Origin: Acidimicrobiia bacterium
Lineage (GTDB): Bacteria; Actinomycetota; Acidimicrobiia; Spongiisociales; ZC4RG35
Assembly: GCA_965215185.1 (NCBI GenBank)
Contig: OZ244034.1
Location: 3,057,535-3,121,534 of the forward strand
Length of the DNA stretch: 64,000 bases
Direction of reading: 5' to 3'
Of this stretch, positions 1,566 to 50,629 are shown in pieces. The first letter of the stretch is position 1. Every line of letters starts with the position of its first letter. The position numbers and the translations under genes are program-made. The notes beneath the pieces were generated by a model. It did not search any database, was not told the DNA's origin, and worked only from the letters and a program-made list of their open reading frames with translations.

Positions 1566-2405
1566 TCAGCCCAGCCCGAGTAAGCGCCGCGGGTTATGGG
1601 CTGAGATGGCCTGCCAAGCGGCCTCCGACAATCCGGCCGACTTCAGAGCCGTCACGTATTGCTCCACGTTGACCGCCGGATAGGAGGTCCCGAAGAGCAT
1701 CCGATCCATCAGAAACCCGTTCGCCGCAAGCGTGTAGTCGGATCTACCGGGAAGATTGGCCCAGTAGAGGTCCGGCATCACCCAGAAGTTGGGGCGCCGC
1801 CACGCTACGCCGAGGGTCTCGGTGACGAACGGCCAGCCTCCATGCACCGAAACCACCTGCAGGTTGGGGAAGTCGCGTGCTACCCGATCGAGGGGCGCCG
1901 GGAAGGCGTACGAGATATCGGGGTTCGCGTCGCCGCCGGACACGAAGACCGGAAGGCCGGTCGCATCGATCTGTTCATAAACGGGATAGAGCACGGGATC
2001 ATCCGCGTGCATGGGTGGATCGGCTATTCCCGGCTCGACGGTCACCCCGACAAACTCCAGTTGCCGGCAGGTAACCAGATCTGCTTCGGTATCGCCGGGA
2101 GTCAACCGAAGCGAGCCGACTCCGAGAAAGCGATCCGGGTGGGTCCGGACGAGTTCGGCCACGAATTCGTTCGAAGTACCGCCAATGAGGTCATTGGATG
2201 CACGTGCCGCCAGCACGGCGGTGTCGACACCGGCCCGTGTCATCTCGTCGAAGAAAAGGGGAAGTGACTGCCGTTCGAACGAAGGCGGGATATCGTATCC
2301 GCGCTGCCGGAGTCTGGCCCCCATCGCGCCAGGGGAGGTGAACATGCGCTGTTGCAGGAACTCGCCGGCAGGAGGCCTCGCCCGAAGGTCGATCGCACCC
2401 GGCAT
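1566..2405 (-). CDS. Amidohydrolase_2 family protein
   Basis: Motifs AIDLRARPP, HPDRFLG, DPVLYPVYE, HGGWP, RMLFGTSYP; start placed at ATG 2405, just after the upstream gene's stop. Confidence 0.85.
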   Translation of the reverse strand: MPGAIDLRARPPAGEFLQQRMFTSPGAMGARLRQRGYDIPPSFERQSLPLFFDEMTRAGVDTAVLAARASNDLIGGTSNEFVAELVRTHPDRFLGVGSLRLTPGDTEADLVTCRQLEFVGVTVEPGIADPPMHADDPVLYPVYEQIDATGLPVFVSGGDANPDISYAFPAPLDRVARDFPNLQVVSVHGGWPFVTETLGVAWRRPNFWVMPDLYWANLPGRSDYTLAANGFLMDRMLFGTSYPAVNVEQYVTALKSAGLSEAAWQAISAHNPRRLLGLG

Positions 2406-28588: not shown

Positions 28589-29538
28589 GCTCTCAACCCT
28601 TCGAGGGCGGCTTCTACCGGATCGAGGTCAGCGGCCGCAGCTGCCAGCAGCGCGGTGAGGGTGTCACCCGACAACGGACCGGCGATCCGGCGCAGCGCCG
28701 ACAGGGAAGTACCCGCGTGTAGGTGGGCGACCAGCCATGTGGAACGGGCACGCCGCACCGAAAGGGTACGGCCACTGATCCCAACCTGCCGACACAACAT
28801 GTACACAGCGGTGCGATGCGTCGCCGAAACGAACCGTTCGCCGTCGGCCAGCTCCACAGCTTCGCGTACGAGGGATGTGTAATCGTGGCGTATCGGCACC
28901 ATGCGCGGATGCGTGCCCCCGACCCGTATACCGAGCCGGTCGTTTCCGAGGTTGACCAGATCGCCGGTCTCGGCTGCTGCGACCGCCGGACTGAGCAGAC
29001 CCGCCCCGAGAGTGGCAGCGACCACCCAGCGACGGCCCGCGGGCTCCACCCGGGCCGGCAAACGTGCCGACAGCCGGAACACTGCCTCATCTCCCGGCGT
29101 ATACGGGCTCGACGGGGGTATGCGCCCGATCGGTTCCCCAACAGGGGCCTCGACCCAGCCGTCCGGGAACACAGCCCGCCCCACCCGGCGTAGAATCCAC
29201 CTGGTGTGGCGCCGCCACACCACACTCTTATGAGCGTTCGCTTCGAACGCCCAGTACTCCACGTTGGCGGGACACAACATCCGGACATCCACCGTGGCAG
29301 ACACCCCGAATGTCCAGGCAGCGAACTGCGACGTAACGCGAAGCATCTCGCGGACCATCGAAACGGTATCCGGGTGAGCAGCCGCAACCCAGCAACGTAC
29401 CGTCGGCCATACCAGCGTTTCGAGGTCTCCGCTGTCATCCGGATAGGTGTCCCAAACCGGTGGGCGCCACAACGACAGCCTCGCCAGCACGTCAGGAACC
29501 AGATCGGCAGATAGCGGAGCCCGGGTGAAGCAGGTCAC
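28585..29538 (-). CDS. Tyrosine-recombinase-fold protein with degenerate catalytic residues
   Basis: LGAGLLSPAV (box I), RMVPI, RRARSTWLVAHLHAG..LSALRRIAGP...DTL (box II); 4-bp overlap with the transposase. Confidence 0.7.
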   Translation of the reverse strand: MTCFTRAPLSADLVPDVLARLSLWRPPVWDTYPDDSGDLETLVWPTVRCWVAAAHPDTVSMVREMLRVTSQFAAWTFGVSATVDVRMLCPANVEYWAFEANAHKSVVWRRHTRWILRRVGRAVFPDGWVEAPVGEPIGRIPPSSPYTPGDEAVFRLSARLPARVEPAGRRWVVAATLGAGLLSPAVAAAETGDLVNLGNDRLGIRVGGTHPRMVPIRHDYTSLVREAVELADGERFVSATHRTAVYMLCRQVGISGRTLSVRRARSTWLVAHLHAGTSLSALRRIAGPLSGDTLTALLAAAAADLDPVEAALEGLRA

Positions 29539-41311: not shown

Positions 41312-43096
41312 TTATGGGGGTGCGCGGGTGGGTGTGGACTGGCCTGGGCGTTGGGTTGGTGAGGCTGCGGTGGTGTCGGGGGTTGCCTGGTCGGCGCGGG
41401 CTGGGGTGCTTGGGTTGTCCTTCTCGGGGTTTTGGGTTCTTCCGGTTTGTTCGAGGTTGTGGATGACGGCGGCGGCGAGAGCGGCGAGTGTGTGGGGGGC
41501 GAGGCCGAACGCGCGGCAGGAGTCCTTCTCGAAGCTGCCGTCGTCTTTGATCATGCCGTTGACGCCTTCGACGGGGTTGCGGCCGGCGTAGTCGGTTGCC
41601 CATTTGGTGGTGCCGTAGGCGTTGCGTTGGTGGTTGTCGAGTTGGTCGACACCGATGGTGATCATGCCGTCGCAGCAGTATTTGGTGTCGGCGACGGCGG
41701 TGACGGGCAGGGGGGTGCGGCGTTTGCCGCGGTTGGCCCGGTTGCTGCGGGTTCGGGCTGTGCTTTTGACTTTGCCTGCGCATTGGGGGCACATGATCTT
41801 CTTCCGCCCGTTGGGGAAGTGTTCGATGACTACCCATTGGTATTTGGCTCGTTCGTCGAACCATTTTTGGCGGTCGGTTCCGGTCAGCCCGTCGAGTGGG
41901 CGGAGTAGGTGTTCTGGTGTCCATTCGACGAGGATGGTGCCGCAGTTCACAAGGAGGGGGGTGTTGTCTCCGCCTGCGGTGATGAGCTTGATGCCTTCCT
42001 GTCTGTCTTTGGCCTGGTTCATTACGATGTCCCAGCCGTGTTCATGTAGGGGCCGGACGAAGGTCGTTTTCTTCGCGGTGTAGTGCTGGTCGGCTTTCAC
42101 GACTTTGACGCTGGGTGCTAGCTGTTTCGCTTTGGTGGCTACCTCATATCCGATGGGTCCGACGTGTTGGTCGGCGGCTGCGAGGACCATGGCGACGATG
42201 TACGGGGGGACAGGCTGCTGCCATTTGCCCCGGATGAAGGCGCGTATTGCGACGGCTAGATGAGCGAAGTAGCCGTTGAACGCCCCGGCTGGGTGTTTCG
42301 ACGTTGCGCTGCGGCGGCCGGTGCCGTCTTCGTCGTCCTTGGTGCGTTGGATCTTGCCGTTGGGTTTGAGGATGGTTCCTAGGGGTATGCGGCCGGCGTT
42401 GATCTCTGACTGGGGTGTGAAGTCGGTGGTGCGTGCCCAGGTTTGGTAGTCGGTGGCGTCGAGGGCGATCTCGGTGACGTTGCGGATGGCCCGTTTGGGA
42501 ATCGACGGCGCGAGGAAGCGGTCGACCATCCATTGCTGTTCGATATGGATACCGCTGGGGGTGGTCGCTTCCTTCGTCAGGAAGCGTTCGATGCGTTGGG
42601 CCTGACGCCAGACCATGTTGTAGGACAGCAGCGAGTCGCCGCTGTCGGGATCCAGCAGACCCCATTTAATAGCGACCGCGGCGTCGAGGCCCGAGAGGAC
42701 TTCGCACAACACGGTCCGCTTGTAGCTGCCTTGGTGCTGGGCGGCGAGGAGTATGGCTGTGAGGATCATCCGGGTAGATAGCACGGGCTGTTCCCCCGGA
42801 TGGGCACGCAGCACTTCGTCTATGCGCTTGCAGACTCCGGTGTTGCCCGCGTACTGATACATGCGCCGGGCGTCGGCCTCGTTCGTGAGTATCGGTCCCC
42901 GGCGGCGGAGTCCCTCCTCGGCGGTATCCCCCCAGATGTGGGCACCCGACCGACCTGTTTCGTGGTCGTCGGCGCTGGGATGGTCTCTGGGCAGCATCCG
43001 CTGAGCGTTCAGCTCGTACAGGCGGGCAGGGTCCGGCAGGCCCCGGGCGGCGCAACGATCGCGGCGGCGGCGGGCAGCACGGGCCGGGCTGCTCAC
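41312..43096 (-). CDS. DDE transposase copy 3 (594 aa, intact)
   Basis: Close paralog of 26798-28588; IALDATD, VKADQHY, YAGRNPVE. Confidence 0.85.
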   Translation of the reverse strand: MSSPARAARRRRDRCAARGLPDPARLYELNAQRMLPRDHPSADDHETGRSGAHIWGDTAEEGLRRRGPILTNEADARRMYQYAGNTGVCKRIDEVLRAHPGEQPVLSTRMILTAILLAAQHQGSYKRTVLCEVLSGLDAAVAIKWGLLDPDSGDSLLSYNMVWRQAQRIERFLTKEATTPSGIHIEQQWMVDRFLAPSIPKRAIRNVTEIALDATDYQTWARTTDFTPQSEINAGRIPLGTILKPNGKIQRTKDDEDGTGRRSATSKHPAGAFNGYFAHLAVAIRAFIRGKWQQPVPPYIVAMVLAAADQHVGPIGYEVATKAKQLAPSVKVVKADQHYTAKKTTFVRPLHEHGWDIVMNQAKDRQEGIKLITAGGDNTPLLVNCGTILVEWTPEHLLRPLDGLTGTDRQKWFDERAKYQWVVIEHFPNGRKKIMCPQCAGKVKSTARTRSNRANRGKRRTPLPVTAVADTKYCCDGMITIGVDQLDNHQRNAYGTTKWATDYAGRNPVEGVNGMIKDDGSFEKDSCRAFGLAPHTLAALAAAVIHNLEQTGRTQNPEKDNPSTPARADQATPDTTAASPTQRPGQSTPTRAPP

Positions 43097-43758
43097 GCTC
43101 TCAACCCTTCGAGGGCGGCTTCTACCGGGTCGCGACCGGTAGCAGAGGCGGCCAGCAGCGCGGTGAGGGTGTCACCCGACAGCGGACCGGCGATCCGGCG
43201 GAGCGCGGACAGGGGAGTGGCGGCGTGTAGGTGGGCGACCAGCCAGGTGGAACGGGCACGCCGCACTGAAAGGGTACGGCCACTGATCCCGACCTGGCGG
43301 CACAACATGTACACCGCTGTGCGATGCGTGGCCCGAACGAAGCGACCGGTACCTACTAACCCTGCGGCTTCGGTGACCAGGGGGCTGTAGTCGGCTCGGA
43401 TGGGGACCACACGCGGATGCCTGCCCCCGACCCGTATACCGAGCCGGTCGTTTCCGAGGTTGACCAGATCGCCGGGCTCGGCTGCTGCGACCGCCGGGCT
43501 AAGCAGACCAGCCCCGAGGGTGGCGGCGACCACCCACCGTCGGCCTGCGGGCTCCGCCCGGGCCGGCAGGCAAGCCGACAGTCGGAACGCTGCTTCGTCT
43601 CCCGGCCCATACGGGCCGGACGGGGGTCTGCGCCCGATCGGTTCCCCAACAGGGGCCTTGGCCCAGCCGTCCGCGAACACAGCCCGCCCCACCCGGCGTA
43701 GAAGCCACCTCGTGTGGCGGCGCCACACCAGACTCCTATGAGCGTTCGCTTCTAAAGC
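43093..43758 (-). pseudogene. Recombinase-fold protein copy 3, 5' end removed at the ISL3 boundary
   Basis: Homology to copy 1 runs up to 43758, where the ISL3 IRL starts. Confidence 0.82.
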
Positions 43759-43881
43759 GGCTCTTCGGAAATGAGGGGGGAGTAGGGGGTCGGCTAGGTG
43801 GTGCCGTAATCCACCAGAAGTGATGGGGGGTCCTCCATAATCGGATGGTTGGTAACAGACATCCGAGGCAGGAGGACCCCT

Positions 43882-45185
43882 GTGGAAGCTGATCCTACGC
43901 GCATGTGCGAGAAGTTGGTAGGCCTGGGCGAGGTTGATCTGGTCGGGATCAACGACTTGGGCGAGGAGGCACCTTTGGAGGTGGTGATCGGGTCCCGCAA
44001 GGCCCGGCCGGTGTGTGAGGGCTGTGGCGGCCCTGTGTGGTCGAAAGGCTATCGGAGTGTGGTGTTGGTGGATTTACCGGCGTTCGGACGGCCTGTGCGG
44101 CTGCGGTGGAGGAAACGGCGCTGGACGTGTCCGAACTCGGGGTGTGAGATCAGGTCGTTCATCGAACAAGACCCCAAGATTGGTCCCGAACGGGCGTTGT
44201 TGACATCGAGAGCGGCTCGGTGGGTGACCATCGGGGTGGGTGGGCGGGGCCGTTCGGTCGACGAGGTCGCCGCGGAGTTGGGTTGTGATTGGCATACGGT
44301 GAACAACGAGGTCGTCCGTTGGGGCGAAGCGCTGCTGGGGGCCGACACCGATCGGATAGGCGAGGTCGGAGCTGTGGGCATCGACAAGAAGCGTTGTTGG
44401 GGCGGAAAGGCCGGTGGCGCACCAAGGTTTGGTGCACTTCTGTCGTCGATGTGGGAGGCCACCAGCCGGTTCGACATAGTCGGTGGTAGAACGGCTGATA
44501 GCGCGGTGTCGTGGTTCCGATCCCAGCCCCCCGAGTGGCTCGACGGGATCCGCTGGGCGGTGTCGGGTCATGTCAGGGCCTTATCGGAAGGCGTACGACC
44601 GGGTGTTGCCGAACGCTGTGCAGGTAGCGGACCCGTTCGGTGTCATCCGCTTGGCCAACCAGCGTCTCGACGACCTACGACGAAGAGTCCAAAACGAAAC
44701 CCTCGGGCATCGAGGACGCAAGGATGACCCGCTGTATCGGATACGGCGGCTCCTCACCGCCGCTTCCGAGAGGATCAGCGACCGCGGTCAAACACGGCTG
44801 CGTGGTCTCCTCGACGCTGGTGACCCCCACAGCGAAGTCCGCACCGCCTGGCACGCGAAGGAAACGGTCCGAGGCATCTACGGGGTCGACAGTCCCGCCC
44901 TCGCTCTCCGATACACCGTCGGGCTCGCGGACGACCTCCAGGACGAATCCTGCCCACCCGAGATCAACAAGTTGGGTCGTACCATCGCCCGCTGGACCCC
45001 CCAGATCACCAACTGGCACATCTCGAAGGTAACCAACAGATGCCACCGAAGCCCTCAACAACCTCATCAAGCGGATCAAACGAGCAGCGTTCGGGTTACC
45101 CAACTTCGCGAACTACCGAATCCGGGCACTTCTCTACGCGGGGAAACCCAACTGGGACCTCCTGGCCACCGTCACTCCCCACTGA
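43882..45185 (+). pseudogene. ISL3 transposase with several frameshifts
   Basis: CEGCG, DLPAFGRPVRLRWRKRRWTCP, VGID, QVADPF, HRGRKDDPLY, EALNNLIKRIKRAAFG spread over several frames. Confidence 0.88.
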
Positions 45186-45199
45186 AATCCACTCATACT

Positions 45200-45410
45200 T
45201 GGAGGGTTCCTGGGCTGGGACGGGTCTGACCCAACTGAAATCTGGCCTTGTGCCTTTTCATCGATCTGTCGGCCCGTTCCCGGCCTGGGGCGTGACCCCG
45301 TGACCCGGGGCGGATGTGACCTAATAGGAGCCTTCAACTTCTCCACCGTGAGTGGCCTGTCCAACCGCACACGGGTCCGGGATCAGGAAGTGAGTCTATC
45401 CCCTAGAGGA
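45200..45410 (+). ncRNA. Putative IS110 bridge RNA
   Basis: Left non-coding end carries target guides (45234-45242, 45258-45265) and donor guides (45324-45331, 45349-45355); transcript ends are approximate. Confidence 0.75.
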
Positions 45411-45420
45411 GAAGAGCATC

Positions 45421-46650
45421 ATGGGAGAAGCAGACCAGATTATCTACGGTGGGGTTGACACCCATCGGGACGTCCACGTAGCAGCGGTGGTGGATGGCGT
45501 CGGGCGGGTACTGGGATCGGAGTCTTTCGCGGTGGAGGAATCCGGTTATCGGCGAATGGTCACCTGGTTCGAGTCGCGGGGACAGTTGGTTCGGGTTGGG
45601 GTGGAAGGAACGGGTAGTTACGGCGCCGGCCTGGCCCGTTACCTGACCGAGATGAACATCGAGGTGGTGGAGGTCAACCGCCCCAACCGCCAACTACGCC
45701 GCCAGAAGGGCGGCAAGACCGACAGCGTCGACGCCGAGGCGGCAGCTCGGGCAGCTGCCTCGGGCGAAGCAACCGCGGTTCCCAAGTCCGGTGTGGGCCC
45801 GGTCGAGTGCATACGGATGCTGTGGGTGGTGCGCCGCTCCGCGGTCAAGGCCCGCACCCAGGCCGCTAACCAGATACATGCGCTGGTCGTAACAGCTCCC
45901 GAGCCGCTAAAACACCAGCTAAAGGGCATGAATCTCAAAGCACGGGTCAAAACCTGTGCCCGGTTCCGACCCGGCACAGACCACACCACCACCGCGTATG
46001 CGAAGCGTGCCCTACAGCATTTGGCCCGCCGGTATCAGGCTCTCGACGTAGAGATCGCCCAACTCGAAGCCGAGATCCGGCGTCTCTGCGCCCAGGCCAA
46101 CCCGGCCCTGCTGGCCACAGAAGGTGTCGGTCCTGACACAGCCGCCGCGTTGTTGGTCGCCGCCGGCGACAACCCCAAGCGAATGAAATCGGAACGGTCT
46201 TTCGCGGCGCTGTGCGGCGCCAGCCCCGTCCAGGCGTCATCAGGACGAACCCTTCGGCATCGTCTCAACCGGGGCGGCAACCGCCAAGCCAACAACGCGC
46301 TATGGCGGATCGCTACCACCCGGATGCGCACCGACGCCGCCACCAAAGCCTACGTGGCACGACGCAAGGCCGAGGGCAAGAAGAAAAAGGAGATCATCCG
46401 CTGCCTCAAGCGGCACATCGCCCGAGAAATCTACCGGCTCCTCACCAACCCGCACCCAACCCCGAACTGCGCCCGCCTACGCACCCGACGCCAACAACGC
46501 GGCATCACCCTCACCCAGACCGCCCAAGCCGTCGGAACCCACCCCAATCGCATCTCAGCACTCGAACACGGCCGAGACCACAACCACCACCTCGCCACCC
46601 GATACCAGAACTGGCTGCACACCCACCAAACCGCCCCATCATCGATTTGA
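45421..46650 (+). CDS. IS110 DEDD recombinase with C-terminal XRE-like HTH
   Basis: GVDTH, VGVEGTGSYG, KTDSVDA, ASSG, RGGNRQAN; tail ITLTQTAQAVGTHPNRISALEHG. Confidence 0.95.
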   Translation: MGEADQIIYGGVDTHRDVHVAAVVDGVGRVLGSESFAVEESGYRRMVTWFESRGQLVRVGVEGTGSYGAGLARYLTEMNIEVVEVNRPNRQLRRQKGGKTDSVDAEAAARAAASGEATAVPKSGVGPVECIRMLWVVRRSAVKARTQAANQIHALVVTAPEPLKHQLKGMNLKARVKTCARFRPGTDHTTTAYAKRALQHLARRYQALDVEIAQLEAEIRRLCAQANPALLATEGVGPDTAAALLVAAGDNPKRMKSERSFAALCGASPVQASSGRTLRHRLNRGGNRQANNALWRIATTRMRTDAATKAYVARRKAEGKKKKEIIRCLKRHIAREIYRLLTNPHPTPNCARLRTRRQQRGITLTQTAQAVGTHPNRISALEHGRDHNHHLATRYQNWLHTHQTAPSSI

Positions 46651-46674
46651 CAACCATAGGAGCATCGATGAGCC

Positions 46675-47092
46675 GCATTACTCTGGACATGTCTTCCATC
46701 GGGCTGAGGCCGTCGGTCCTTAACCTGGCTTGTATGTTCACAGGCATTATGGCTGTCACTTCTAAACCAACCTTGATACCGGACGTCGTGCTTATAAAGT
46801 CTGGACCTGATCCTCGTGTGTTGTCATAGAACTTCGTATCAAGTATCCGTTCGGCTTGTTGACGGGCAGTAGCCTCGGCCCACCTACTCAGCTTTCTTTT
46901 CGCCGACTCATGGCCCTTTCCATCAAACACAGCATTCTGGATGGCCATTATCCGCCAAGGGCCATCATGGCACTCACGACAGAGGAGGGTCATTAGGTCG
47001 TAGATGCCAAACCGCTTAGGGGTCTGGATCTCTTTACCACACTGTGAGCACCTACTCCAGCGATAGCCCGTGGCACGGGTTTCAGTCCTCAT
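46675..47092 (-). pseudogene. Zn-ribbon plus putative PD-(D/E)xK protein, truncated at the ISL3 end
   Basis: CSQC...CREC, then GPDF...VGLEVT. Confidence 0.5.
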
Positions 47093-47198
47093 AGACGCTC
47101 ACCCGTCTTCGGTCCTTCCGTGCCGCTGCGGGATGTGGAACCCCGGTCTCTAGATTTTGAGGGCCTGGGCAGCTATCAGCCATCGGGCACCGGCCCAC

Positions 47199-47750
47199 CT
47201 ATGTATATGGCCTGATCTGAGCTGCCTTCTCGGCCACGCTGAGCCACCCGTTTGGCGTTCGGGGTATGCGTGGAAGCTGACCGCGCTCGATTCGTCGTCG
47301 GTTGACAAACAGCCACGCCATCAAAATAGGCACGACGACAGCTTCGACGAACCAGATAACAGCCGGCACCAGCAGGACTATGACCGCAGCGACTGCCACT
47401 ACAACGATGCTGACATAGCGGGCCGTCGTCACCATCCTATCGGGAATGGGAACCCCCAGCCGGTTGCCTACTGATATCAGGGCATACCCAAGCAGGATCA
47501 GCGCGAGCGGTACAGCGCCTTGATACCATGGGTCGAAGTAGGCAGTAGTCGACGACCAGCCACGGTCGGAGAAGAATAGCCACCTAACCGTTTGGACGCA
47601 CCCGACGATCGTCAACACGAGGTAACTAGCCACCCATGGCGTCGGTTTGCCACCGCTATCGGGGTTCCATCGGTTGTAGCCCGACCCGGGCAAGTCGGTT
47701 GGGCGACCCGGCTCGGCTTCGGGCCTCTCAGATTCTCGGAGTAATTCCAT
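47199..47750 (-). CDS. Membrane protein (about 4 TM)
   Basis: Hydrophobic segments from MELLRES onward. Confidence 0.55.
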   Translation of the reverse strand: MELLRESERPEAEPGRPTDLPGSGYNRWNPDSGGKPTPWVASYLVLTIVGCVQTVRWLFFSDRGWSSTTAYFDPWYQGAVPLALILLGYALISVGNRLGVPIPDRMVTTARYVSIVVVAVAAVIVLLVPAVIWFVEAVVVPILMAWLFVNRRRIERGQLPRIPRTPNGWLSVAEKAAQIRPYT

Positions 47751-47835
47751 GGGTGGGATTCTAGCTCTGTGGGGAGACAAGACCGCATGGTCGGTGGCCT
47801 TACGAACTGGGAGCAGGCACCTGGGGTACGGGCGT

Positions 47836-47908
47836 ATTGGCGGCTGTCTCGGCGACTGAGAAGAGGTGACAGATTCCGGCTGAGGAGGAGACAGACTCGC
47901 GGGACCCT
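47836..47908. repeat. Partial right-end subterminal arm of the tandem element (no TIR)
   Basis: GAGAAGAGGTGACAGATTCCGGCTGAGGAGGAGACAGACTC...GGGACCC, as in units 1, 2, 5 and 8. Confidence 0.75.
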
Positions 47909-48080
47909 TGTTGAGTGGCTCTGATGTGTGAGTATCGGGGCTCGTTGCTCGCCGCGGCGGGCAGGGCTCCAACGCCCTCCTGGGGCCTATGCTCAAACCC
48001 TCAACCCGGACAACCACCCCTAGATTCTGCAGAGGGGGGACTCCAATAGGCGATAAGAAGGTTAGCGAGGCTATCTGCAA

Positions 48081-49133
48081 ATGTCTGTATCCGCAACGTC
48101 GCGTACCGTCTGTCCGGTAGTGGAGCTGACCGTCCGCGACCATCCTGACGCCGACCGTCTCGAAATAGCCGGCCACGGCGGCTATCAGATGGTCGTCGGG
48201 AAAGGTGTTTGGTCAACCGGCGACCGGGCCGTTTACGTGCCCGAAGCGTCCGTTCTGCCGGGCAGTCTCATCGAAGAGATGGGCCTGACGGGCAGGCTCG
48301 CCGGTAAAGGCAGGGACCGTGTCAAAGTGGTTCGGCTGCGGGGAGTGGTGTCGCAAGGGCTTGTAGTACCGCTCGGGTCGCCGCACCTTCCCACGTTCCG
48401 GAACCCGCCGGAGCTGGGAGACGACCTGGCGGAGGCGTTGGGGATCGTCAAATGGGAACCTCCGATCCCGCCGCGGATGGACGGCGTCGCCGAACCTTGT
48501 TCGTGGCCGTCAGGGTTCGACGTCGATTCGTGGCAGAAACATCCGGACCTGTTCGCGCTGGGGGAGCGGGTGCAGGTCACCGAGAAGCTTCACGGCACGT
48601 TCTGCCTGCTCGGATACGACCCCTATCAGGGTTCGGTGGCGGCGTCGAAACGGATGGCTGGCAAAGCCCGGTTCGTGCCCGACGCCGAAGAGAACGCCGG
48701 CAACCTGTATGTGCGGGCGTGGCGTGAACACGCCGACCGTATCGTCGGATGGGCAGAAACGCATGGGCGGAGGCTTCAACTGCTCGGCGAAATCGTCGGC
48801 CCGAAAGTGCAGGACCTCACCTACGGGCAGCAGCGTCCGACGTTCATGGCATTCGACGCCAAAGTCGGCTACGGCACGCTCAACCCGGAACAGACGCAGA
48901 CGCTGCTAGCCGACCTGGGTGTTCCGTCGGTGCCTGTCGTGGAGGGCAGCGTCCCGTTCGATCATGACCTGATGCTGCGGCTGGCAGCGGCGCCGTCAGG
49001 CTTCGGCGGCCTCCGCGAAGGGGTGGTGGTCCGTCCGGTCGAGTACCGCACCGCCAGCGGCGCGGGTCGGGTAATCGTCAAATATGTGAACCCGGCGTAT
49101 CTGCTGCGACGTGGCGGCACCGAACACAACTAG
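48081..49133 (+). CDS. ATP-dependent RNA ligase, DRB0094 family
   Basis: HPDADRLE, VKVVRLRGVVSQG, motif I TEKLHGT, GEIVG, FDAK, REGVVVR, IVKYVN. Confidence 0.9.
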   Translation: MSVSATSRTVCPVVELTVRDHPDADRLEIAGHGGYQMVVGKGVWSTGDRAVYVPEASVLPGSLIEEMGLTGRLAGKGRDRVKVVRLRGVVSQGLVVPLGSPHLPTFRNPPELGDDLAEALGIVKWEPPIPPRMDGVAEPCSWPSGFDVDSWQKHPDLFALGERVQVTEKLHGTFCLLGYDPYQGSVAASKRMAGKARFVPDAEENAGNLYVRAWREHADRIVGWAETHGRRLQLLGEIVGPKVQDLTYGQQRPTFMAFDAKVGYGTLNPEQTQTLLADLGVPSVPVVEGSVPFDHDLMLRLAAAPSGFGGLREGVVVRPVEYRTASGAGRVIVKYVNPAYLLRRGGTEHN

Positions 49134-49189
49134 AGAGGGCACCGGGTGGTAGGGGTCCGGTGGGCTTGTGTCGTTTCCAGCGGATGAAG

Positions 49190-49375
49190 GCGGGTATCGC
49201 CGGTTGGTCGCCTGGATGGAATCTGCGGGCCGGCTGGTCCGGGTCGGGGTGGAAGGAACCGGTAGCTACGGCGCGGGGTTGGCCCGGCATCTTGCCGAGG
49301 CCAACTACGCCGCCAGAAGGGCGGGAAGACCGACAGCGTAGACGCCGAGGCGGCAGCTCGGGCGGCTGCCTCCCC
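49190..49375 (+). pseudogene. IS110 recombinase remnant
   Basis: Near-copy of 45590-45760 (VRVGVEGTGSYGAGLAR, RQKGGKTDSVDAEAAAR) with an internal deletion. Confidence 0.8.
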
Positions 49376-49961
49376 TGACTGAATCCAAAGTCGCTGGTCA
49401 GGGATGGTCGCGTGGGGTGGCGCGGCGGGACCGCTAGGTCTAGGTCTACGAAGGTCGGTGACGGGTTACCGTCGCGGGAGGGATCGCAAGCGACATGCAA
49501 CGCTTGTGGCTGGCAGTCAGATACAGCGTCCTGGGAGGAAGCTGTCGAGGCGCTTGAGGAGCACGGACCTTGTGTGGGTCAGAACAATCGTCCGTCAACT
49601 GACCGCGGGGCCATAACCCCCCGGCGATAGCGGTGCCCTATTCACTGGCCCGGCTAAGCCGTTCGATTCGCAGTCAGTGCGAGGAGGAGACAGATTCCGG
49701 CTGAGGAGGAGACAGACTCCCGGGACCCCTACCATCACCCCTGGTCAGGGGTGGTCGCGAAGACCCCACGCAGGGGTCTTCGCGTGTTGTGGGGTGCTGA
49801 GTTCGCGGGTTAGGGGTGTTGGCGGGGGTCCTGGCCTGTTTCAGGGGTGTTCGGGTGTGTTTGGCCGGGGCGTGGGAGAGTGTGAGTCAGAACGATAACC
49901 CCACCCCAGACGGCTAATGTGGGCCGCCCTGCTGCGGATGACCGGGAGAAGTGTGGGCGAT

Positions 49962-50294
49962 ATGGAACTCGCTATATGGATTACATCAGGAGCCACCACG
50001 CTCACAGCGGTCGGAGTGCTGTATCAGATGTGGTCCAACGCTGCACGGAGAGTAGTGCCTGGGTATCAGACGCTCCGTGCGTCATATCGTTCTGAAGAGA
50101 ACAACCATTGGGTACGTGGCAGACTGTCTGACGGCGAATTGGTCGCTGGGAAGGTAGTCGGGCTTACTCGTGTCACCTGTCGGATAGCCCATCCCACAGT
50201 CTCCACAAAGGAATACCTGATAACAGCTTTCGTCGACTGGGAAACGTTGATCCGGAGCTCAGGCGAGTTCCCGGACTGGGAACCCTGTGGGTAG
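49962..50294 (+). CDS. Hypothetical protein with N-terminal TM segment
   Basis: 110-aa ORF; no recognised motif. Confidence 0.45.
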   Translation: MELAIWITSGATTLTAVGVLYQMWSNAARRVVPGYQTLRASYRSEENNHWVRGRLSDGELVAGKVVGLTRVTCRIAHPTVSTKEYLITAFVDWETLIRSSGEFPDWEPCG

Positions 50295-50449
50295 ACAGCG
50301 ATCAACTAGTTTCTCGGAATCGGGAGAGACAAGGACTTCCCTGAGACCTTTCCGATCACTGAGTAACCCGCCGGGCCACTTTCCTGACCACCCACGGTCC
50401 CCAGGCTGTGTGATCCACGCGACAACTAAGAGCGTGCCGCTAGAGAGCC

Positions 50450-50629
50450 CTAGATGTTCAATTCCAGACCCAGGGTCTCCCAGAAGAAGGCTTTGATACC
50501 CCAGCGCAGGACGTTCGTTCCCCACTCGACAAGTAGCCCCAACATCGGCGTGGCGAGAACCAGAAGGCAAACGGCGACGCCCAGCATCCATTGACTAAGC
50601 GGGTGTCGGAGGACTCCAGGTACTCTCAT
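50450..50629 (-). CDS. Small hydrophobic protein (59 aa)
   Basis: Manual translation MRVPGVLRHPLSQWMLGVAVCLLVLATPMLGLLVEW... Confidence 0.3.
   Translation of the reverse strand: MRVPGVLRHPLSQWMLGVAVCLLVLATPMLGLLVEWGTNVLRWGIKAFFWETLGLELNI

Follow-up and report, generated by a model that had tools for sequence, protein, structure and literature searches.

A predicted bridge-RNA-guided IS110 element in the right inverted repeat of an ISL3 element of an Acidimicrobiia genome

Introduction

For IS110 elements, the inverted repeats of other mobile elements are an already known target. IS1383 reportedly targets the inverted repeats of IS1384 in Pseudomonas putida (a finding attributed to Muller et al. 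2001), and IS4321/IS5075 are said to target the terminal repeats of Tn21-family transposons (attributed to Partridge and Hall 2003). Here we describe a locus of this kind in the final 64 kb of the 3.12-Mb single-contig genome of an Acidimicrobiia bacterium (contig OZ244034.1). This whole stretch of 64,000 nucleotides is called the window, and all coordinates without further label refer to it. An ISL3-family element spans positions 43759-46674, and a 1.48-kb insert interrupts its right inverted repeat. Judging from its sequence, this insert (45191-46666) is very probably an intact IS110-group insertion sequence that moves by bridge-RNA-guided recombination. The target loop of the RNA predicted for its 231-nt left end matches the ISL3 right-repeat site that the element occupies, and the donor loop matches the element's own ends. 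An earlier note on this DNA had proposed the same reading, which the analysis reported here bears out in the main while correcting some details.

The mechanism is that of IS621 and of the seekRNA elements, both described in 2024, and is not new; the NCBI model NF033542 already names the protein family RNA-guided transposase. In the part of the bridge-RNA description drawn on here (Durrant 2024, PMC11208160), the RNA is encoded in the left end and contains two internal loops, the target loop coming first. The 5' sides of the loops are paired to the DNA's bottom strand and the 3' sides with the top strand (PMC11208160). The structural account of IS621, likewise drawn on in part, covers the roles of the catalytic residues and the handshake guides (Hiraizumi 2024, PMC11208158) and reports that changes at the first core base are tolerated (PMC11208158).

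The element of the window resembles IS621 of Escherichia coli, as far as these accounts describe it, in several respects. It encodes a protein with DEDD and Tnp_20 domains whose catalytic residues align, and its predicted left-end guide RNA has the target loop before the donor loop and obeys the same strand rule. A promoter would be rebuilt at the circle junction, and the second crossover base is fixed while the first is tolerant. The two differ in that the proteins share ~21% identity in a fold alignment, and in the crossover, which is NC here (target CC, donor TC) and CT in IS621. The protein of the window also has a C-terminal helix-turn-helix (HTH) domain of ~65 amino acids (aa), no separate 5' stem-loop was seen before the target loop here, and the left guide occurs in two registers among relatives.

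IS1383 is likewise an IS110-family element aimed at the terminal inverted repeat of another insertion sequence. It is proteobacterial, its host IS1384 is listed in the IS5 family and not in ISL3, and it is compared here by description only. IS1384 had been considered as an ISL3-family precedent and was ruled out by its listing as an IS5-family member in a table of PMC5141477. IS4321 and IS5075 are elements with a DEDD transposase that are also aimed at the terminal repeat of another mobile element; they differ in belonging to the IS1111 group, whose inverted repeats are subterminal and whose non-coding region follows the gene on its downstream side, according to the portion of PMC11187229 used here. 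The IS110-type seekRNA elements of the same source (Siddiquee 2024, PMC11187229) have an upstream non-coding region, short segments that match both target strands, and natural re-programming. They represent the same mechanism under another name, and the likeness is to their description, not to a specific member. A literature search found no IS110 element aimed at ISL3 ends, although the supplementary tables of Durrant 2024 and Siddiquee 2024 may list such targets. ISL3 joins the list of mobile elements hit at their ends by IS110-family elements, and no new mechanism is involved.

Element boundaries and insertion site

The ISL3 host has a left inverted repeat of 25 nt (GGCTCTTCGGAAATGAGGGGGGAGT, 43759-43783, + strand, as are the other features described below unless stated) that matches the reverse complement of the reconstructed right repeat; the 25-nt repeats of the two ends resemble each other. 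Its transposase gene (43849-45185) is a pseudogene with a broken reading frame and Pfam domains in two different frames. The longest open frames of this broken gene are 305 and 236 aa, and a copy elsewhere in the genome (83.7% identical) has one of 451 aa. Membership of the ISL3 family follows from Zn_ribbon_ISL3 and DDE_Tnp_ISL3, both above the Pfam cut-offs, with HTH_Tnp_ISL3 below threshold (20.6 bits; cut-off 27.4). The right repeat is split into an inner part of 17 nt (ACTCCCCACTGAAATCC, 45174-45190), which contains the left target and whose final CC (45189-45190) is the predicted target-side crossover, and an outer part of 8 nt (GATGAGCC, 46667-46674), which comparison with empty sites identified as the right target.

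The boundaries of the insert come from empty sites. Removal of 45190-46666 had been thought to restore the ISL3 right end, but uninterrupted ends carry one additional C. They read ...AAATCCGATGAGCC, i.e., CTGA(A/T)ATCCGATGAGCC, one C more than in the former reconstruction. The extra C was present in all 8 ISL3 right-end matches (found in 7 of the 121 genomes of the family) obtained with a pattern that permitted 0 to 2 bases at the insertion point. In this genome, ...CTGAAATCCGATGAGCC and ...CTGATATCCGATGAGCC are the sequences of the two uninterrupted ISL3 right ends. With one extra C in the empty sites, the mobile unit is 45191-46666, or 1476 bp with one crossover copy (TC at 46665-46666), as also supported by six near-identical copies in another genome.

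A second, unrelated target gives the same result. Another copy in this genome (c3) is flanked by ...CAACTCAAC and AAGCCATC..., and CAACTCAAC-C-AAGCCATC is the sequence at each of the three empty sites of this type, which were found in 2 of 17 genomes of the genus. Since the empty sites of two different targets leave only C (or NC) shared by donor and target, the predicted crossover is either the one C that both have in common or an NC dinucleotide, CC in the target and TC in the donor, and the (A)TC core suggested previously has to be given up. The crossover dinucleotide is not identical on the two sides of the element: it is CC on the left and TC on the right, so that the second base alone is shared. 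The element lacks terminal inverted repeats, none of the 25 longest inverted pairs linking both ends. Its non-coding sequence amounts to 230 nt upstream of the ATG and 16 nt after the stop codon.

Guides of the predicted bridge RNA

Four short motifs in the left non-coding region were found exactly where the earlier note had placed them, and their arrangement, a target loop followed by a donor loop, follows the rule published for order and strand sense. In the predicted bridge RNA, 45206-45293 form the target-binding loop domain, with an outer stem (45206-45230/45268-45293) and an inner hairpin (45244-45254). Its left guide, ACTGAAATC (45234-45242), is in the same sense as, and identical to, the left flank at 45181-45189, and its right guide, TCATCGAT (45258-45265), is the reverse complement of ATCGATGA at 46664-46671. 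The donor-binding loop domain (45307-45370; stems 45307-45309/45368-45370 and 45312-45320/45359-45365) carries a left guide, ATAGGAGC (45324-45331), that equals the right end of the element (46657-46664), and a right guide, TGAGTGG (45349-45355), that is the reverse complement of CCACTCA at 45189-45195. The ISL3 left repeat departs from the guide at guide positions and the match is confined to the right repeat, which fits the single insertion orientation seen.

The sequences around the crossover allow the guides to be read more closely. Within the right target guide, TCATCG corresponds to the reverse complement of CGATGA (46666-46671), and the conserved GAU after this guide complements the donor A-TC, not the target T-CC. 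Because GAU complements the donor, the 8-base match to ATCGATGA is composed of 6 target bases (CGATGA) and 2 bases of the post-exchange right junction. By analogy, the AU following the right target guide resembles the handshake guide of IS621. The right donor guide corresponds to CC+ACTCA here and to AC+ACTCA in other copies, and its first base mostly tracks the first crossover base of the copy's own target. Among relatives, the 10-nt left guide is found in two registers: in one its last base pairs with the shared C, in the other with the base that precedes this C. Which of the two is used appears to be linked to the last two bases of the guide, TC going with one register and AC or CC with either; a U-G wobble between the left guide and the next base would be possible.

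For a putative bridge RNA, the decisive test is the covariation of guides with flanks across the family. This genome contains ~41 matches to the element, including full-length relatives at 70-81% identity, and matches occur in 15 of the 16 other genomes of the genus. Guides were extracted from copies with both conserved anchors, which gave 41 rows from 49 sequences. The 10 nt after GGTCTGACyC correspond to the left flank, and the 6-7 nt before the conserved GATCTGTC correspond to the reverse complement of the right flank. In 21 of 28 distinct pairs from this genome and its relatives, the left guide agreed with the left flank of its own copy at no fewer than 8 of 10 positions (13 copies with 9 matches, 8 with 8, 4 with 7, and one each with 6, 4, and 3), compared with 5 of 634 non-cognate pairs. 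At least 4 contiguous matches from the junction were found for the right guide in 9 of 16 distinct cognate pairs versus 1 of 182 non-cognate pairs. This genome alone has guides for at least seven different targets, and a guide class reading CAACTCAACCAAGCC also exists among the relatives.

The alignment of 23 left ends was folded with RNAalifold. A long stem encloses an internal loop with the left guide on its 5' side and the right guide on its 3' side, and the inner hairpin between the two has 3 bp. In the outer stem of the target loop, which comprises 21 pairs, 98.1% of cells are paired, and compensatory changes occur at 3 of these pairs. The counted structure as a whole has 34 pairs with 97.3% of cells paired, versus 43-56% when the partners were slid by 1-3 columns; compensatory changes were found at 6 of the 34 pairs, and none of 500 shuffles matched the observed covariation score. 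All four guide segments lie in unpaired loop sides of this structure, whose donor-loop stems come from a fold with the guide segments forced to be single-stranded and are thus partly imposed by us. Folding had been suggested as a check, and it places the guides in internal loops closed by stems with compensatory changes. In the unconstrained fold, UGAGUG is paired with CACTCA of the DNA left end in each of the 23 copies, which is the donor-guide complementarity itself.

Several observations weigh against RNA-guided insertion. The left guide of this copy ends one base before the crossover C, with two registers in use among relatives, and the right guide matches just 6 bases of the true target. 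The motif ATCGATGA alone is not rarer than chance in the window (4 occurrences versus 1.74 expected; 8 of 100 shuffles reach 4). The single-sequence fold is ordinary (z = -1.62; 12 of 200 shuffles fold as well), and without constraint RNAalifold gives just a weak local hairpin for the donor-loop half, with no clear fold of the loop interior. No Rfam family was found over 43000-50500 apart from a sub-threshold radC hit (21.5 bits versus a gathering threshold of 40), in a library that may not hold a bridge-RNA model, and we infer the transcription of the RNA from sequence alone. In the pair L064/L067, the right guide and the right flank do not match. Finally, the guides of two copies, out of 28 distinct ones, do not fit the sites where these copies lie. 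One of them (L033/L113, genome G011) is in an ISL3 right repeat yet has guides of the CAACTCAACC/AAGCC class, with no stretch like the window copy anywhere along its length. The other (L063, genome G002) is 96-100% identical in 150-nt windows to the cognately placed copy L039; the site of L063 itself resembles the target of another guide class, one copy of which, L071, is found in the same genome as L063.

Copies with the same guides at unrelated targets had been named in advance as evidence that would speak against the proposal, and this is the case for a small part of the material, the 2 of 28 copies that are off their own guides. These copies suggest targeting in trans by co-resident relatives, or later rearrangement. 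Since donor ends are common to the relatives, these cases could be explained by a neighbor that supplied the target loop. In one IS621 synaptic complex, the two loops, target and donor, come from two RNA molecules, as stated in a figure legend of PMC11208158.

Some of these points are what would be seen if the guide matches were chance similarity in a GC-rich repeat region and no functional RNA existed, namely the frequency of ATCGATGA and the modest z score of the single-sequence fold. The other target motif behaves differently: ACTGAAATC occurs twice in the 64-kb window versus 0.23 expected, and none of 100 shuffles reaches 2. The real support for the motifs comes from the family comparison, not from such single-motif counts, and there the covariation with flanks is far above the non-cognate controls, compensatory pairs are present, and the slid-partner controls are far lower. 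Chance is contradicted by these results already, and we regard it as extremely improbable.

Repeated insertion into ISL3 ends

The guided reading predicts further copies in ISL3 inverted repeats, a check that the earlier note had called for, and such copies exist: one in this genome and nine full copies in another have the same guides at the same position. The copy in this genome (c1), 81% identical to that of the window, lies at the same position of a truncated ISL3 copy, and further junction remnants are present (two right, one left). A search of a species-level genome collection for the exact 18-base right junction returned 28 matches, spread over 27 loci; with uniform base composition, a sequence of 18 bases should occur ~17 times by chance in the two strands of 596 Gb. 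Eleven of the loci (12 matches) are in one 5.06-Mb genome labelled Candidatus Spongiisociaceae, class Acidimicrobiia, and five are in other metagenome-assembled genomes (MAGs), four labelled Acidimicrobiia and one Dehalococcoidia. The remaining 11 loci have no IS110 context and look like chance matches; they were dropped before cognate copies were counted (Streptomyces, four loci; Microtetraspora; Massilia; Jiangella; Acinetobacter; a cyanobacterium; and two Desulfobacterota MAGs).

The loci fetched from the Spongiisociaceae genome contain 9 full copies, all 9 with the same two guides and with outer flanks that are all different. The left flank ends in ...ACTGAAATC in eight of them and in a variant (ACTGAGATC) in one. 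Six of these copies are 99.3-99.5% identical to the window copy, while the ISL3 copies aligned in 7 of the loci are just 84-94% identical to the ISL3 of the window. Near-identical IS110 copies in divergent ISL3 hosts point to repeated, recent, and targeted insertion rather than to a copied composite.

A single insertion into ISL3, later multiplied by ISL3 movement or duplication, would also leave identical junctions everywhere, as is observed, and the window copy and c1 do lie in related ISL3 sequence (92% identical over 172 bp). We nevertheless consider it very unlikely. The ISL3 hosts of the six near-identical copies differ not only from the ISL3 of the window but also from each other, the window copy and c1 have diverged to 81% identity, and an ISL3 element whose outer 8 bp are cut off from its repeat should be hindered in its movement.

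A locus of contig OZ253443.1 (L100, match at 1941-1958, minus strand) shows the left end CACTCATACTTG joined straight to TAGGAGCATC, beside GATGAGCC. It is an internally deleted minimal remnant, still in an ISL3-type end.

Transposase and C-terminal HTH domain

The gene of the element (45421-46650) encodes a transposase of 409 aa, the predicted bridge recombinase, which is the usual length in its subfamily (~409 aa). Pfam, NF033542, and the structures of IS621 and ISCro4 agree on an IS110-family RNA-guided transposase, as had been proposed. The protein carries DEDD_Tnp_IS110 (PF01548, 1.2e-23) and Transposase_20 (PF02371, 1.7e-19), and the NCBIfam model NF033542 ("IS110 family RNA-guided transposase") matches residues 10-343 with 210.3 bits (cut-off 140). 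Among solved structures, those of IS621 and ISCro4 are the closest to this protein in both sequence and fold. With an AlphaFold2 model built from a 35-row alignment (mean pLDDT 85), the top 10 Foldseek hits were all chains of IS621 or ISCro4 (E ~1e-9, probability 1.00, TM 0.39-0.51). Residues D13, E62, D101, D104, and S274 align with the catalytic residues of IS621; S274 corresponds to the IS621 serine (chain residue 243), and S273 and S274 are invariant in 35 homologs. In this genome, the transposase frame is undisrupted only in the window copy and in another copy, c2, while c1, c3, and c5 are frameshifted. Open-frame length had made c1 and c3 appear intact, and alignment revealed the frameshifts in both.

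Beyond the region that aligns with IS621, residues 350-401 (46468-46623) form a four-helix HTH domain, found by Pfam, modelled with confident AlphaFold2 helices, and absent from IS621 and ISCro4. HTH_31 (27.6 bits, cut-off 27) and HTH_3 (25.2 bits, cut-off 23) score just above their thresholds. The extra C-terminal HTH that had been announced does exist, but it is extra solely in comparison with IS621: it is a trait of the subfamily, with an HTH Pfam hit in ~67 of 120 listed homolog clusters (counted by eye).

Such a domain could have a part in target choice. In that case the transposase itself, for instance through its C-terminal HTH, would recognize the ISL3 repeat, and the RNA-like matches would be incidental or secondary. 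A confident and conserved four-helix HTH is in line with this, as are the two copies at sites that their own guides do not fit. Within this one protein subfamily, however, at least seven targets follow the guide sequence; the HTH tails of the window copy and c2 are 61% identical, yet the target of c2 differs; and both non-cognate sites are cognate for another guide class of the genus. Recognition by the protein is therefore most unlikely, and guidance by the RNA remains the reading that we follow.

Predicted circle-junction promoter and proposed mechanism

The two halves of a promoter that would exist only in the circular form lie at the ends of the element. The -35 half TTGACA (46647-46652) is 14 nt from the right end, and the -10 half CATACT (45194-45199) is at the left end, with 4 of its 6 positions invariant in 23 aligned copies. 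Both hexamers of the predicted TTGACA-N18-CATACT are thus present, and both are conserved among copies; the spacer has to be corrected, since with one crossover copy it is 14 + 3 = 17 nt, not 18. No promoter-like site was found at the left end of the element in the integrated state. The right-guide region TCATCGATCTG (45258-45268) recurs at 10 of 11 bases as TCATCGATTTG (46639-46649), before the right-end -35 box, which may be chance.

The 24 public runs listed are available as assembled contigs only, and four of them were examined. No contig of these four joins 46666 to 45191 and none skips the element, contigs being unreliable for either purpose. Word depth inside the element is several-fold that of the right-flank contig in 4 of 4 runs, a ratio not to be read as a copy number. 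Between runs, the loose ends after 46666 and 46674 vary.

The features described above can be combined into a mechanism. In the circular form, whose junction is predicted to read ...GGAGCATC followed by ACTCAT..., TTGACA and CATACT would be brought 17 nt apart and would drive an RNA of ~165 nt starting at ~45206. This RNA would fold into two internal loops closed by stems. The 3' side of the target loop (UCAUCG) would pair with the top strand just past the crossover, and in the second loop AUAGGAGC would read the right end of the element and UGAGUGG its left end. The DEDD/Ser recombinase encoded downstream would then exchange strands at the shared C (target CC, donor TC). The insertion would take place 8 bp from the outer end of ISL3, in one fixed orientation, and would split the repeat.

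Every part of the bridge-RNA model can be read from the sequence at this locus, from target and donor guides and handshake-like bases to the split promoter and the empty sites, and more than 12 naturally re-programmed relatives from one genus accompany it. The set provides high-GC orthologs for tests of the guide rules, with a differing first crossover base and a left guide in two registers, as well as a recombinase with an added HTH domain.

Targets of sibling guide classes

Other copies of the family lie in or beside mobile elements. Copy c2 sits inside the right end of another copy, c4 (G000:C1:1095994-1098933; L003, L005), between the -35 box (TTGACAAA) and CTAGGAGCATC. Its left guide is TTGACAAAC, and two left-end fragments (f14 and f20) are found at the same point of sibling right ends. 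The position of c2, f14, and f20 at one point of sibling ends indicates that this guide class targets relatives of its own family and splits the junction promoter. Copy c3 (G000:C1:978480-979955; L004) interrupts the coding sequence of a different IS110-type transposase; its insertion point falls in the motif ...NRRGDRQLN|QAIH, and empty versions of this site occur in two related genomes. Among copies of other genomes, L038 (G008) lies at the end of an IS1182-like DDE transposase frame and L039 (G002) directly after an IstB_IS21 gene.

It is conceivable, though we hold it to be rather doubtful, that the IS110 subfamily of this Acidimicrobiia lineage forms a guild that hunts other mobile elements, disabling competitors and sparing host genes, with target loops lent in trans. 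Its targets may include the ISL3 right repeat, the -35 region of sibling IS110 elements, the conserved motif in another IS110-type transposase gene, and sites directly beside an IS21 istB gene and an IS1182-like gene. Target loops lent in trans would explain copies at sites that match a neighbor's guides. Three of the five copies with sampled flanks have no mobile element in the flank.

Neighboring sequences

Several sequences around the locus are recorded here as minor observations. The 59 nt directly left of the ISL3 left repeat (43700-43758) reappear with 88% identity at 29192-29250, ~14.5 kb upstream. To the right of the element, an open reading frame (ORF) of 350 aa (48081-49133) carries RNA_ligase (6.9e-19) and PHA02142 OB-fold domains. 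It is followed at 49168-49372 by a fragment of the N terminus of another IS110-type transposase, 70% identical to positions 345-572 of the element and with a sub-threshold DEDD_Tnp_IS110 hit. To the left, on the minus strand, an ORF of 594 aa (41312-43096) has a sub-threshold DDE_Tnp_1_6 hit (20.4 versus 25.1 bits) and is possibly a degraded transposase.

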